Positions 53,002 to 63,667 are shown, numbered from the stretch's first letter. The stretch: DNA of 64,000 bases from a bacterium (GCA_046497505.1 JAWOFN010000112.1:8834-72833), one strand, 5' to 3'. Translations and numbers: made by a program. Notes: a model not told the origin generated them from the sequence alone.

Positions 53002-54489
53002 TCAGAAGATCCCGGCGGCGTAGGCGGCGATTTCCGCCAGCGGGCTCCAGAGGATCCCGAACAGCAGGACCGGCACTACCAGGACGACGGCCAGGGCTGC
53101 CTGGGGCAGGCTGAGCCGGCCCATGGGGGCAGCGGTGGTTTCTCCCCCTCCGTCAAGCCACATCGCCTTGGCCACCCGCATGTAGTACCAGAGGCTGATC
53201 ACGCTGTTCAGCACCCCGGCCACCGCGAGCCAGTATATCTCCTTCTGGATCAGGGCGGCGAAGAGGTACCACTTGCCGATGAAGCCTGCCGTGGGGGGGA
53301 GTCCGGTGAGGCTGAAGAGGACGATGACCATGCCCACGCCCAGCATGGGGTGGCGCCAGCCCAGGTCGTTGAAAGCGGACATCTCGGCCGAGCCGGTCTG
53401 CTGCTCCACCATATCCACGATCAGGAAGAACGCGAGGTTGGCGAAGTAGTAAACCATGAGATAGAGGAGCACGGCCTGCAGGCCGGTGCCGCTGAAGGCG
53501 GCCAGCCCCATGAGGATGTAGCCCGCGTGGGCCACACCGCTGTAGGCGAGCAGCCGTTTCAGGTTGGTCTGCAGGAGGGCGGCCAGGTTCCCCAGGGTCA
53601 TGGTGATGACGCTGAAGACCGCCAGGATGGCGGACCAGTCCAGCCCGCCGGCGGTGGTCCAGATACCGGTGGTCTCGGAGAGGGGCCCGGCCCCGAAGGC
53701 CCATATGAAGCGGATGAGGAGGGCCACGCCTGCGGCCTTCGGCCCCACAGCGAAGAAAGCTGCCGCGGGGGTCGGAGCCCCTTCGTACACGTCGGGGGCC
53801 CAGAAGTGGAAGGGCACCATGCTGATCTTGTATCCCACCCCGGCCAGGGTGAGCACCGCCGCGGTCAGCAGTCCCAGACTGGGTTCCATGGTGCGCAGCG
53901 CGGTCCCGATGGCATAGAGGTTCGTGTGCCCGGTCATCCCGTACAGGAGGCTGAACCCGAAGAACATCGTCCCGGAGGCGAAGGCTCCGTAGATGACGTA
54001 CTTCACCGATGCCTCGGCACCCTTCTCGTCCTCCCTGAAGAAACCCGCCATGACATAGGAGGGCACGCTCACCAGTTCCAGGGCGATGAAGACCATCACC
54101 ACGTCGCTGGCGCCCACCAGCAGGTAGGCCCCGACCAGCGAAGCCATCATGAGGGCGTAGAACTCCGCGCCCCTTCGACCGATGGACCCTTCCTCGCGGG
54201 CGTGGGGGGCGGTGAACACCACCACGGCCACCGCCACGGCACTGAAGAAGAAGCGGAAGAACACCACCATGGCGTCCACGGCCGTGGTGTCGTAGAACAC
54301 CTGGGTCGCGGCCTTCGTGACATCTCCCAGACCCAGGAGCGCTGCGGCGGCGGCACCCACGGCGGCGATCCATGCCGCGACGAGCGCCCGGTTCCGCTTC
54401 AGCACGAACTCCGCCCCGATCACCAGCGCAAGGGTCCCTGTGAGGACCAGCTCGGGGATGAAGTAGCTGAGGCTCTCTATGGTTCCCAT
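53002..54489 (-). CDS. nuoN: NADH-quinone oxidoreductase subunit N
   Basis: 495-aa antiporter-like subunit with about 14 TM helices. NuoN-type N-terminus (MGTIESLSYFIPELVLTG). Last gene of the nuo operon. Confidence 0.85.
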   Translation of the reverse strand: MGTIESLSYFIPELVLTGTLALVIGAEFVLKRNRALVAAWIAAVGAAAAALLGLGDVTKAATQVFYDTTAVDAMVVFFRFFFSAVAVAVVVFTAPHAREEGSIGRRGAEFYALMMASLVGAYLLVGASDVVMVFIALELVSVPSYVMAGFFREDEKGAEASVKYVIYGAFASGTMFFGFSLLYGMTGHTNLYAIGTALRTMEPSLGLLTAAVLTLAGVGYKISMVPFHFWAPDVYEGAPTPAAAFFAVGPKAAGVALLIRFIWAFGAGPLSETTGIWTTAGGLDWSAILAVFSVITMTLGNLAALLQTNLKRLLAYSGVAHAGYILMGLAAFSGTGLQAVLLYLMVYYFANLAFFLIVDMVEQQTGSAEMSAFNDLGWRHPMLGVGMVIVLFSLTGLPPTAGFIGKWYLFAALIQKEIYWLAVAGVLNSVISLWYYMRVAKAMWLDGGGETTAAPMGRLSLPQAALAVVLVVPVLLFGILWSPLAEIAAYAAGIF

Positions 54490-54501
54490 TCGCGGCCTGC
54501 C

Positions 54502-55980
54502 TTACCCGACGACGTTGATGATCTGGCGGAGTGCCTTGTCCATGATGTCGATCAGCGTGCTCGGGAAGATCCCCAGGACGAAGGTCAGTACGACCAGCGG
54601 CACCAGCGTGACCGCCTCACGCAGCGACATGTCCGGGAAACCCTTGTACTCCTCGTTGATCTGACCGAAGTAGACCCGCTGGACCGTCCAGAGGATGTAT
54701 ACCGCGGTGAGGATCAGACCCGAGACCGCGATGATGGTCAGCGTCCTGTAGACGGTGAAGGCACCCAGCAGGCTGAGGGCCTCGCCGATGAAGCCGGACA
54801 TGGAGGGCAGCCCCAGCGAACCCATCAGGAGGAGCAGGCTCACGCCGAAGTACTTCGGCATGTGCAGTGCCAGCCCGCCGAAACGGTCCAGGTCCCGGTG
54901 GTGCGCCCGATCGTAGATCACGCCGACCACGAGGAAGAGCCCCCCGGAGAGGATCCCGTGGCTGATCATCTGGAACACCGCCCCGTTCATGCCGTATGCG
55001 GTCAGGCTCGCCATGCCCAGGAGGACGAACCCCATGTGGCTCACACTCGAGTAGGCCACCAGCTTCTTGAAGTCGGTCTGGGCCATGGCCACGAAAGCGC
55101 CGTAGACGATGTTGATCACACCGATGATGGCAAGGGTGTAGGCGAACCAGACCGTCCCCTCCGGGAGCATGGGGAAGCTGATCCGCAGCAGCCCGTAGGT
55201 CCCCATCTTCAGGAGCACACCGGCCAGGATGACGCTGATCGGTGTGGGGGCCTCGACGTGGGCGTCAGGAAGCCACGTGTGGAAGGGGAAGGCCGGGACC
55301 TTGATGGCGAACCCGATGTAGAAGGCCAGGAAGACCCAGATCTGGAAGCCCTTCGCCCACCCGGCGGCGTTCCCCATCAGCTCCAGCATGTTGAAGGTGT
55401 GGGGGTCGCTGTTGAAGTAGACCGCCAGCATCCCCAGCAGGAGGAGTACGGACCCCACCAGCGTGTAGAGGAAGAACTTGATGGCGGCGTACTCGCGCCG
55501 GGGGCCGCCCCAGATGCCGATGAGGAAGTACATCGGCAGGAGCATGACCTCCCAGAAGACGTAGAACAGAAAGAAGTCGAGGGCCACGAACACCCCGTAC
55601 ATGCCCGTCACCAGGAGCATGAACAGCATGTGATAGCCCTTGACGCCCTTCGTGATGTTCCACGATGCGATGACCGCCAGAAGGCCCAGCAGCCCGGTCA
55701 GCAGCACGAGCGGGAAGGAGAGCCCGTCCACGCCCACGAAGTACTGGATTCCGAACTGGGGGATCCACGCGACCTTTTCCACAAACTGGAAACCGGCCTC
55801 TGTCGTGGCCCCGACCATGGCGTAGTCCCACTGCGACCACATCACCAGCGACAGTGCCAACGGTATCGCGGTGGCCGCCACGGCGATCCAGCGGATCAGT
55901 GTGTCCCTGCCCTTCGGGACCAGCAGCATCGCCAGTGCCCCGAAGACCGGGAAGAAGGTGATTACGGTCAGGTAGCCCAT
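54502..55980 (-). CDS. nuoM: NADH-quinone oxidoreductase subunit M
   Basis: 492-aa antiporter-like subunit. Conserved blocks WLPDAHVEAPTP, YSSVSHMGFVLLG. Confidence 0.85.
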   Translation of the reverse strand: MGYLTVITFFPVFGALAMLLVPKGRDTLIRWIAVAATAIPLALSLVMWSQWDYAMVGATTEAGFQFVEKVAWIPQFGIQYFVGVDGLSFPLVLLTGLLGLLAVIASWNITKGVKGYHMLFMLLVTGMYGVFVALDFFLFYVFWEVMLLPMYFLIGIWGGPRREYAAIKFFLYTLVGSVLLLLGMLAVYFNSDPHTFNMLELMGNAAGWAKGFQIWVFLAFYIGFAIKVPAFPFHTWLPDAHVEAPTPISVILAGVLLKMGTYGLLRISFPMLPEGTVWFAYTLAIIGVINIVYGAFVAMAQTDFKKLVAYSSVSHMGFVLLGMASLTAYGMNGAVFQMISHGILSGGLFLVVGVIYDRAHHRDLDRFGGLALHMPKYFGVSLLLLMGSLGLPSMSGFIGEALSLLGAFTVYRTLTIIAVSGLILTAVYILWTVQRVYFGQINEEYKGFPDMSLREAVTLVPLVVLTFVLGIFPSTLIDIMDKALRQIINVVG

Positions 55981-56004
55981 GTGCTACGTCTCCCGTGAAA
56001 CCGG

Positions 56005-62396: not shown

Positions 62397-62399
62397 CCG

Positions 62400-63185
62400 T
62401 CAGTCTTCCTTGTTGGCCAGCATGGCGTATTCGTCCAGGTTGGGACGCTGGGGCTGGTTCTTCTCGGGATCCTCGGCGAAGACCTGCTTCCGGGTCTCCG
62501 GACCGAGTTCGCCTTCCGGCACCTCGGGGGTCCAGAGGGATCCGATCTTGTACCCCAGCACCCGCTCCTTCTCGATCTTCTTCTTCAGGAGCAGGAATGC
62601 CTCGATGAGGGTCTCGGGACGGGGGGGACAGCCGGGAGCGTAGACATCCACGGGGATGATCTTGTCCACCCCCTTGACCACGTGGTAGCCGTGCTTCCAG
62701 TAGGGGCCTCCGCAGTTGGCGCACGAACCCATGCTGATCACGTAGCGGGGCTCGGCCAGCTGCTCGTAGAGACGCTTGATGCGCAGCCCCATCTTGTAGG
62801 TCACCGTCCCGGATACGATTATCACGTCGCTCTGCCGCGGCGTGTTCCGCATCACCTCGTATCCGTGCCGGGACATGTCGAAGCGGGTCGCCAGCGTGGC
62901 CATCATCTCGATCGCGCAGCAGGCCAGGCCGAAGCCCATGGGCCAGATGGATCGGGCCCTGCCCCAGGAGAGGAGCTTGTCCACGCTGGTCATGAGGACC
63001 GACTCGCTCAGGGACCGTACCAGGGAGGGCATCCCGGGCGTGGCTTCCTTCGGAGGGAGATCGTAGGGGTCCCTGTCCACCACCAGCTTCGCGGAATCGG
63101 TGGCCGGGTCTTCCCCGATGGCCTTGACGTCTTTGACCTCGATGAAACCGGTCTCGACGTTGCGCGGCTTCTTGCTGTCCGCCAT
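62400..63185 (-). CDS. nuoB: NADH-quinone oxidoreductase subunit B (20 kDa; N2 cluster) with extended N- and C-termini
   Basis: ORF 62400..63539 trimmed to ATG 63185 with an [33 protein letters not shown] and [11 protein letters not shown] Cys motifs. There are about 75 aa before the CC motif and about 65 aa after PGCPP. Confidence 0.8.
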
Positions 63186-63190
63186 GCGGT

Positions 63191-63667
63191 TCACTCTCCT
63201 GCCGTCGTGGCGCGTGGGGTGGTCGCCGCCCCGTGGTGCTTGAAGATCGCCTCCTCGGGCATCTCGACGTCTTCGCCGGTGAAGGCGGGACGGGGCTTCA
63301 CCCAGTCCAGGTCCCCCTTGGCCCAGGCGTAGACCAGGCCGAGGGCCAGGATGGAGATGAAGATGACCCCCTTGATGAAGGTGATGAGGCCTCTGCCCGC
63401 CGCCACTTCGTCCCCGAAGATGATGGCCCACGGGAACATGAAGAGGATCTCCGCCTCGAAGATGATGAAGGTCAGGGCCACGGTGTAGAACCGGAAGTTG
63501 TACCGGATCCGCGCTTCCCCCTTCGGCTCCTCCCCGCACTCGTAGGTGGCCAGCTTCTCCGGATCGGGATTCCGCGGCTGGAGGAGTCTCGAAACGAGTA
63601 TGCTGATGAAGACGAAGGCGGCCCCTGCGGCGAGGAAGACCAGGATGGTACCGAATTCTCCGCGCAT
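63191..63667 (-). CDS. nuoA: NADH-quinone oxidoreductase subunit A with a C-terminal soluble extension
   Basis: Start ATG at 63667 ([24 protein letters not shown]). The track start is TTG 63682. YECGEEP and [15 protein letters not shown] NuoA blocks. About 35 extra C-terminal residues. Confidence 0.8.

Follow-up and report, generated by a model that had tools for sequence, protein, structure and literature searches.

What delivers electrons to a respiratory complex I that has no module for oxidising NADH is a question that has accompanied the bacterial 11-subunit enzymes since at least 2011, these enzymes being very common in anaerobic and microoxic bacteria. The question is raised again by an operon at positions 53002-63667 of the 64,000-nucleotide stretch of bacterial DNA presented above (GCA_046497505.1, JAWOFN010000112.1:8834-72833; the whole stretch is referred to as the window), which encodes eleven subunits of complex I and none of NuoE, NuoF and NuoG. 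Moparthi and Hägerhäll, in a survey of 2011, reported complex I of this composition, without the NADH-oxidising N-module, from Bacteroidetes, Chlorobi and many other phyla (PMC3144371), and the enzyme of Prevotella has been named a headless NDH-I (PMC6560451). The architecture has been known since that year and is very common; what is new here is the host, a Gemmatimonadota-like bacterium, together with an N-terminal extension of NuoB that is restricted to its lineage. A literature search combining Gemmatimonadota with nuoEFG found no paper on the 11-subunit form in this phylum. The operon probably encodes a complete and self-contained headless complex I, in which a soluble low-potential carrier, most likely reduced ferredoxin, would donate electrons at NuoI, and the reduction of quinone would drive pumping.

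Eleven genes in the order nuoA-B-C-D-H-I-J-K-L-M-N form one unbroken series on the minus strand, as established from open reading frames (ORFs) and Pfam matches, each product matching exactly one of the families expected for complex I:

63191-63667, minus strand: nuoA, 158 residues, Pfam Oxidored_q4 (8.5e-34).
62400-63185, minus strand: nuoB, 261 residues, the subunit carrying cluster N2, Pfam Oxidored_q6 (3.8e-26).
61806-62396, minus strand: nuoC, 196 residues, Pfam Complex1_30kDa (2.6e-40).
60624-61802, minus strand: nuoD, 392 residues, the quinone-site subunit, Pfam Complex1_49kDa (5.2e-92).
59629-60627, minus strand: nuoH, 332 residues, Pfam NADHdh (4e-107).
58975-59601, minus strand: nuoI, 208 residues, the subunit with two [4Fe-4S] clusters, Pfam Fer4 dicluster families.
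58476-58970, minus strand: nuoJ, 164 residues, GTG start, Pfam Oxidored_q3 (3.6e-27).
58174-58479, minus strand: nuoK, 101 residues, Pfam Oxidored_q2 (1.5e-22).
56005-58167, minus strand: nuoL, 720 residues, antiporter-like, Pfam Proton_antipo_N and Proton_antipo_M (the latter in the range 1e-70 to 1e-80 for nuoL, nuoM and nuoN).
54502-55980, minus strand: nuoM, 492 residues, Pfam Proton_antipo_M (7.5e-80).
53002-54489, minus strand: nuoN, 495 residues, the last gene of the operon, Pfam Proton_antipo_M (7.9e-70).

The series is bounded by the ATG of nuoA at 63667 and by the stop codon of nuoN at 53002, its intergenic gaps range from -4 to +27 bases, and third-position G+C is high throughout; beyond nuoN lies a UPF0047 gene on the plus strand, convergent to the operon. 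Many spurious ORFs occur in the window, since its G+C content is about 66%. The start of nuoA (MRGEF) agrees with that of its relatives, and nuoC and nuoD are separate genes. For nuoJ, a 220-residue ORF proved to be over-extended, the true start being the GTG at 58970, 4 bases past the nuoI stop, which gives a product of 164 residues, equal in length to the NuoJ of relatives. A scan of the operon region for promoters and terminators gave sites no more numerous than in shuffled sequence. An earlier reading of the same DNA, made from the sequence alone (the sequence-only reading), had given the same gene order, the same outer limits to the base and a direct junction of nuoD with nuoH by a stop/start overlap.

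This junction bears directly on the missing module. A single ATGA holds both the stop codon of nuoD and the start codon of nuoH, a 4-base overlap (...CGATGACC...), so that nuoE, nuoF and nuoG cannot fit between the two genes. Moreover, a tblastn search with E. coli NuoE, NuoF and NuoG against the whole 64-kb window returned no homologue, the best match (E 0.015) being to the Fe-S motif of a hydrogenase subunit and at chance level, and homologues of the three proteins were also absent from the loci of close relatives. The flavoprotein and 75-kDa subunits, which the sequence-only reading had placed outside the operon, are indeed not part of it. Other types of complex I were set aside: the canonical 14-subunit enzyme, as NuoE, NuoF and NuoG are not encoded with the core; the Campylobacterota type, in which NuoE and NuoF are replaced and nuoG is kept, as the nuoD/nuoH overlap leaves no space for such genes; and the '2M' type, as nuoL, nuoM and nuoN are each present in a single copy and NuoL owes its extra length to a low-complexity loop between transmembrane helices TM14 and TM15.

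The residues that hold the cofactors, line the quinone site and serve the pump are intact. For this comparison the subunits were aligned to their E. coli counterparts, the E. coli residue numbers being first checked for the expected residue. In NuoB, C89, C90, C155 and C186 align with the four E. coli ligands of cluster N2, and in NuoI all eight Cys ligands of the two [4Fe-4S] clusters (N6a/N6b) align with those of E. coli NuoI, while H40, Y89 and D141 of NuoD align with the quinone-site His38, Tyr87 and Asp139 of Thermus Nqo4. In NuoA, E71 and E73 align with E. coli D79 and E81, the first position being Glu here with its acidity kept; NuoH keeps six conserved acidic residues and NuoJ its conserved Tyr. 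Furthermore, every one of the 19 residues checked in NuoL, NuoM, NuoN and NuoK is conserved, including E147, K231, K397, D181, H334, H338 and D398 of NuoL, E144, K227, K258 and E400 of NuoM, E138, K221, K251 and K406 of NuoN, and E36 and E73 of NuoK. Compared with the canonical 14-subunit enzymes (E. coli Nuo, Thermus Nqo), the Q- and P-modules are homologous throughout and keep the catalytic residues tested, the difference being that nuoEFG are not in the operon of the window.

NuoD, with QHPSTHG at the N-terminal site and GEVDR as its last residues, has neither the N-terminal nor the C-terminal NiFe-binding CxxC pair and is thus no large subunit of a hydrogenase. The reading as a group 4 membrane-bound hydrogenase was rejected on account of these missing NiFe ligands and of the scores, MbhL giving 189 bits with NuoD against 342 bits for Thermus Nqo4, its best match in the PDB. 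Since the Fe-S ligands and the quinone-site and pump residues are conserved and there are no hydrogenase motifs, the operon is predicted to encode a redox-active, quinone-reducing and pumping-competent core, and the machinery for the ion-pumping complex proposed in the sequence-only reading is in place. The same residues bear on an explanation floated for the Prevotella headless NDH-I (PMC6560451), according to which the redox function has been lost and the complex acts as a cation/proton antiporter-like module. Such a module would be in keeping with the Mrp-like character of NuoL, NuoM and NuoN and with the abundance of genes for Na+ handling in the window, where a Na+ decarboxylase and two CPA2 exchangers are encoded. 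Nevertheless, none of the twelve Fe-S Cys ligands has changed, nor has the His, Tyr or Asp of the quinone site, and since such strict conservation is not expected without a redox function, a redox-dead antiporter is very unlikely indeed.

How electrons would enter a core of this kind can be outlined in three steps. In the first, the soluble low-potential carrier, which would most likely be reduced ferredoxin, flavodoxin also being possible, would dock on the exposed surface of NuoI, NuoB and NuoD, the usual seat of NuoG. In the second, electrons would pass from N6a to N6b within NuoI, then to N2 in NuoB, and from there to the membrane quinone at the site formed by NuoD, NuoB and NuoH. In the third, the reduction of the quinone would drive ion translocation through NuoH, NuoA, NuoJ and NuoK and the antiporter-like NuoL, NuoM and NuoN. 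The donor, the direction of operation, the pumped ion and the quinone are what we infer in this scheme, a ferredoxin donor being the one usually inferred in the literature. Caldithrix abyssi, a member of the Fibrobacteres-Chlorobi-Bacteroidetes (FCB) group, carries two loci, one of 14 genes and one of 11, and reduced ferredoxin was suggested as the donor for the 11-gene locus (PMC5317091). Desulfitobacterium hafniense fails to grow on lactate or pyruvate in the presence of rotenone but still grows on H2, and either ferredoxin or a cytoplasmic hydrogenase was proposed as the donor (PMC11238625). In Bacteroides fragilis, deletion of nuo leaves the NADH:quinone activity unchanged, and the donor has been drawn as unknown (PMC7002350).

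The relatives of the operon show how far this composition extends. The closest NuoD (93% identity) lies on a 2-kb JGI contig and is followed by a small group of proteins at 72-81%; the closest in species-representative genomes (L001 and L002, 79-80% NuoD identity) are labelled 'uncultured Gemmatimonadota bacterium', and it is on the titles of these nearest records of metagenome-assembled genomes (MAGs) that the Gemmatimonadota-like assignment of the host rests. An exact copy of NuoD was absent from the protein collection, a 42-mer taken upstream of nuoA had no match among the JGI metagenome contigs, and the relatives obtained from the genome contigs did not exceed 80% identity. An identical 11-gene operon is found in close relatives at 76-81% NuoD identity, namely L001, L002, the JGI contigs L009-L011 and the NCBI MAG L012 (GCA_025774785.1). 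Where the contig reaches, their products measure 156-157 residues for NuoA, 264 for NuoB, 196 for NuoC, 390-391 for NuoD, 164 for NuoJ, 101-102 for NuoK, 714 for NuoL, 493 for NuoM and 493 for NuoN. The flanks of the operon differ between L009 and L012, and both differ from the window, so conservation is confined to the 11-gene operon, with no partner gene travelling with it.

Outside this lineage, the next protein matches, at 59-64% NuoD identity, come from Ignavibacteria, Bacteroidota and Marinimicrobia/Fidelibacterota. Operons in which nuoD is followed by nuoH were also found at 63-64% (Ignavibacteria), about 62% (Fidelibacterota) and 52-55% (Chlorobi/Bacteroidetes/Kapabacteria) NuoD identity, and the full order from nuoA to nuoN recurs in the Ignavibacteria locus L014 and in the Chloroherpeton/Bacteroidetes/Kapabacteria loci L003-L007. 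NuoD is 52-64% identical to the FCB 11-subunit enzymes, 47% to Thermus and 39% to E. coli, and a neighbour-joining tree of NuoD placed the lineage of the window inside the FCB 11-subunit group, apart from Thermus Nqo4, E. coli NuoCD and a second operon of the Fidelibacterota locus L015. In addition, the architecture was surveyed in 80 metagenome loci fetched by NuoB similarity, the gene after nuoD being visible in 24 of them: nuoH follows nuoD in 21/24 (NuoD 43-62% identical to that of the window), and nuoE, with or without nuoF and nuoG, follows it in 3/24 (44-45%). Given 21 of 24 informative loci, nuoD followed by nuoH is the common arrangement among relatives. This NuoB-based scan reached only the conserved core and returned no further members of the lineage. 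By its sequence affinities, the operon is an 11-subunit enzyme of an FCB-group subclade in a putatively Gemmatimonadota-like bacterium.

Some of the loci collected depart from this layout. In L005, a MAG of Chloroherpeton thalassium, an orphan NuoF-type gene (4004-5332) follows a NAD kinase gene and has neither NuoE nor NuoG adjacent; its product has Complex1_51K, SLBB and NADH_4Fe-4S domains and shares 44% identity with E. coli NuoF. This gene is situated upstream of the 11-gene nuo operon, from which about 3 kb and three opposite-strand genes separate it. Two tandem nuo operons are found in L015 (9025-21128), the first reading A-C-D-H-I-J-K-L-M-N, with no nuoB called between nuoA and nuoC, and the second starting A-B-C-D and running off the locus, its NuoD being 42% identical to that of the window. 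In L014, a gene for a 663-residue OmpA/TSP3-domain protein (13813-15804) stands between nuoK and nuoL; L049 and L053 have a NuoI-like gene upstream of nuoA and lack one between nuoH and nuoJ; and L008, labelled Epsilonproteobacteria, shows nuoB-C-D-I, with no nuoH after nuoD.

Several points weigh against the reading of the operon as a self-contained headless enzyme fed by ferredoxin. The negative result for NuoE, NuoF and NuoG covers 64 kb of the genome only, and the NuoD tree is small, of the neighbour-joining type and without support values. The cultured Gemmatimonas aurantiaca has been listed with two 14-subunit enzymes (PMC4453560), so the N-module may exist in genomes of this phylum. Regarding the donor, Pfam scans found no ferredoxin, flavodoxin, 2-oxoacid:ferredoxin oxidoreductase (PFOR/OGOR), Rnf or FpoF-like gene in the window, and no donor-type gene is conserved beside the operon in the relatives. 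The restriction to 64 kb and the enzymes of Gemmatimonas aurantiaca, together with the orphan NuoF-type gene near the Chloroherpeton operon, would fit a conventional NADH dehydrogenase that is merely split, with nuoE, nuoF and nuoG encoded elsewhere in the genome and their products assembling onto the 11-subunit core. On the other hand, the subunits have their affinities in the FCB 11-subunit clade and not among the 14-subunit enzymes, the operon is conserved without nuoE, nuoF and nuoG across 52%-81% NuoD identity, the B. fragilis enzyme of the same type is without NADH activity (PMC7002350), and FCB genomes with both forms keep them as separate complete loci (Caldithrix, PMC5317091; the tandem operons of L015). 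A split enzyme is therefore considered unlikely.

The preferred reading, a headless complex I accepting electrons from a soluble carrier, must also be set against the possibility that the exposed surface serves as a docking platform with no single dedicated donor, receiving electrons from several partners, such as the diaphorase module of a hydrogenase or dehydrogenase or some other Fe-S protein, and not specifically from free ferredoxin. This was proposed by Moparthi and Hägerhäll after a search for a universal partner protein had failed (PMC3144371), and proteomics of D. hafniense has since suggested seven candidate partners (PMC11238625). At the present locus, the features that could serve a lineage-specific partner are the extensions of NuoB and NuoA. 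NuoB carries an N-terminal extension of about 45 residues and a conserved C-tail, the extension being conserved in sequence in L009 and L012 and absent from NuoB of the Chlorobi/Bacteroidetes type. When residues 1-60 (63006-63185) were searched against 1.84 billion representative proteins, the single match was a 264-residue NuoB of the same lineage (P0121, 78% identity), with no homologue outside the lineage's own cluster; the N-terminal extension is a real, lineage-restricted feature of a protein which otherwise scores 228 bits against the NCBIfam NuoB subfamily (cut-off 116). NuoA has a C-terminal extension of about 20 residues, likewise conserved within the lineage and absent from NuoA of the Chlorobi/Bacteroidetes type. 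A cytosolic NiFe hydrogenase encoded in the same window may be added as a potential partner. However, no candidate partner gene is conserved beside the operon, and the hydrogenase is about 45 kb distant and resembles the self-contained NAD(P)-linked sulfhydrogenases. A platform of this type is possible, if on the whole rather doubtful. The narrower idea that a lineage-specific donor docks at a site built from the N-terminal 45 or so residues of NuoB, its C-tail and the C-extension of NuoA is speculative and improbable; if true, with the extensions replacing the missing N-module, the enzyme would be a structurally new form of headless complex I.

The sequence-only reading had spoken of decorated subunits. 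This is correct for NuoB, whose N-terminal extension is real and lineage-specific, and not for NuoJ, whose supposed N-terminus is a reading-frame artefact: the Arg/Lys-rich first 56 residues of the 220-residue ORF (58971-59138) are the Glu/Lys-rich tail of nuoI read in another frame. That C-terminal NuoI tail and an insertion between the cluster motifs are both common to NuoI of the Chlorobi/Bacteroidetes type and are features of the clade. The tail was considered as a basic arm for catching ferredoxin and rejected, being rich in Glu and Lys, of negative net charge (counted from the sequence) and common to the whole FCB type; since it is net negative and so widely shared, it is not specific evidence on the donor. 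The variable low-complexity loop of NuoL between TM14 and TM15 occurs in Ignavibacteria and Chloroherpeton as well.

Among known systems, the closest likeness is to the headless NDH-I/NUO of Bacteroides fragilis, Prevotella and Chlorobaculum tepidum, which have the same gene set in the same order, with nuoD directly followed by nuoH. The headless enzymes of Bacteroidota, Chlorobiota and Ignavibacteria are the nearest outside the operon's own lineage (52-64% NuoD identity) and share with it the insertion between the cluster motifs of NuoI, the Glu/Lys/Ala-rich tail of the same subunit and the long TM14-TM15 loop of NuoL. The operon of the window differs from them in its Gemmatimonadota-like host, in the N-terminal extension of NuoB (about 45 residues), the distinct NuoB C-tail and the C-extension of NuoA, all its own, and in that nuoC and nuoD are separate in the window. 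The enzyme of D. hafniense has the same 11-gene architecture without the N-module and is likewise predicted to reduce quinone and to pump ions (PMC3144371, PMC11238625); it differs in belonging to Bacillota and in that physiological data exist for it, and it is likened to the present one by architecture and not by direct sequence comparison.

The cyanobacterial and plastid NDH-1 has the same eleven core families and no NuoEFG, and NdhH gives 325 bits with NuoD of the window as compared with 342 for Thermus Nqo4. Cyanobacterial ndh genes are not gathered in one operon, and the enzyme has additional subunits, among them NdhS, to which the binding of ferredoxin is linked. NuoD passes the generic NCBIfam NuoD model, whereas the NdhH model scored 365.8 against a cut-off of 583 and the ndhI model 60.6 against 302.35, and no Pfam family of the NdhL to NdhS or NdhV type was found among the window genes scanned. 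With both equivalog cut-offs failed and no subunit specific to oxygenic phototrophs among these genes, the cyanobacterial type was rejected. Thus, of the Bacteroidota/Chlorobiota/cyanobacteria type named in the sequence-only reading, the Bacteroidota/Chlorobiota part is upheld by the nearest relatives and their 11-gene operons, and the cyanobacterial part is not. Archaeal Fpo/Fqo, the F420H2 or ferredoxin:methanophenazine/quinone oxidoreductase, likewise has a homologous 11-subunit core without NuoEFG, the host of the window being, in contrast, bacterial. This type was rejected too, as FpoD (342.5 against a cut-off of 600), FpoI (49.2 against 180) and FpoL (498 against 1050) fall far under the NCBIfam cut-offs and the window contains no FpoF input subunit; in fact, no FpoF/FrhB-like or FpoO gene was found in it.

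The surroundings of the operon had been taken in the sequence-only reading as favouring ferredoxin, on the strength of a hydrogenase and decarboxylases encoded nearby:

4642-8589, minus strand: NiFe hydrogenase cluster of four genes (Fer4_22 protein, FAD/NAD-binding protein, small subunit, large subunit).
18936-22483, minus strand: Na+-translocating biotin decarboxylase of four genes (methylmalonyl-CoA decarboxylase-like alpha, OAD_gamma-like, biotin carrier, Na+-pumping beta).

The best NCBIfam matches of the hydrogenase are the beta, gamma, delta and alpha subunits of NAD(P)-dependent sulfhydrogenase, all below the equivalog cut-offs, and the enzyme is most like the cytosolic NAD(P)-linked type and not a ferredoxin-linked one; the decarboxylase is an ion pump and would not supply low-potential electrons. 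A distance of 31-48 kb separates the two clusters from the nuo operon, whose flanks are not conserved, and the argument drawn from them is consequently weak. No Nqr gene was found in the window. The window also encodes peptidases, a Glu/Leu/Phe/Val-type dehydrogenase, a P-type ATPase and a Cu/Zn superoxide dismutase, a context which suggests a salt-adapted, peptide-degrading heterotroph and which does not bear on the donor of the nuo enzyme.

The same context is of use for the direction in which the enzyme would run. Complex I is reversible in principle, and the headless form could operate mainly in reverse, the membrane potential driving quinol electrons uphill to ferredoxin; the same machinery serves both directions and all pump residues are intact. 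Against this, the catabolism of peptides and amino acids and the Na+-pumping decarboxylase suggest a heterotroph that produces reduced ferredoxin rather than needs it, and the window gives no sign of autotrophy or nitrogen fixation, so that mainly reverse operation is decidedly unlikely. Even with the forward, ferredoxin-fed headless enzyme as the preferred reading, the locus gives no new handle on the donor, as no partner gene is linked to it, the organism is uncultured, and tractable models exist in Bacteroides and Desulfitobacterium. Its value lies rather in annotation: in genomes of this lineage, the operon is not to be counted as an NADH dehydrogenase in metabolic reconstruction.

Other genes of the window are the following:

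37543-42200, plus strand: a tandem pair of paralogous cation/proton exchangers of the CPA2 type, about 760 residues each, with Na_H_Exchanger, TrkA-N and PTS EIIA-2 domains.
43494-46862, plus strand: genes resembling those for poly-gamma-glutamate capsule synthesis (Mur-ligase-like CapB, and CapC), with an unassigned ORF and a DUF6305 gene after them.

The three-part architecture of the two CPA2 exchangers is unusual.

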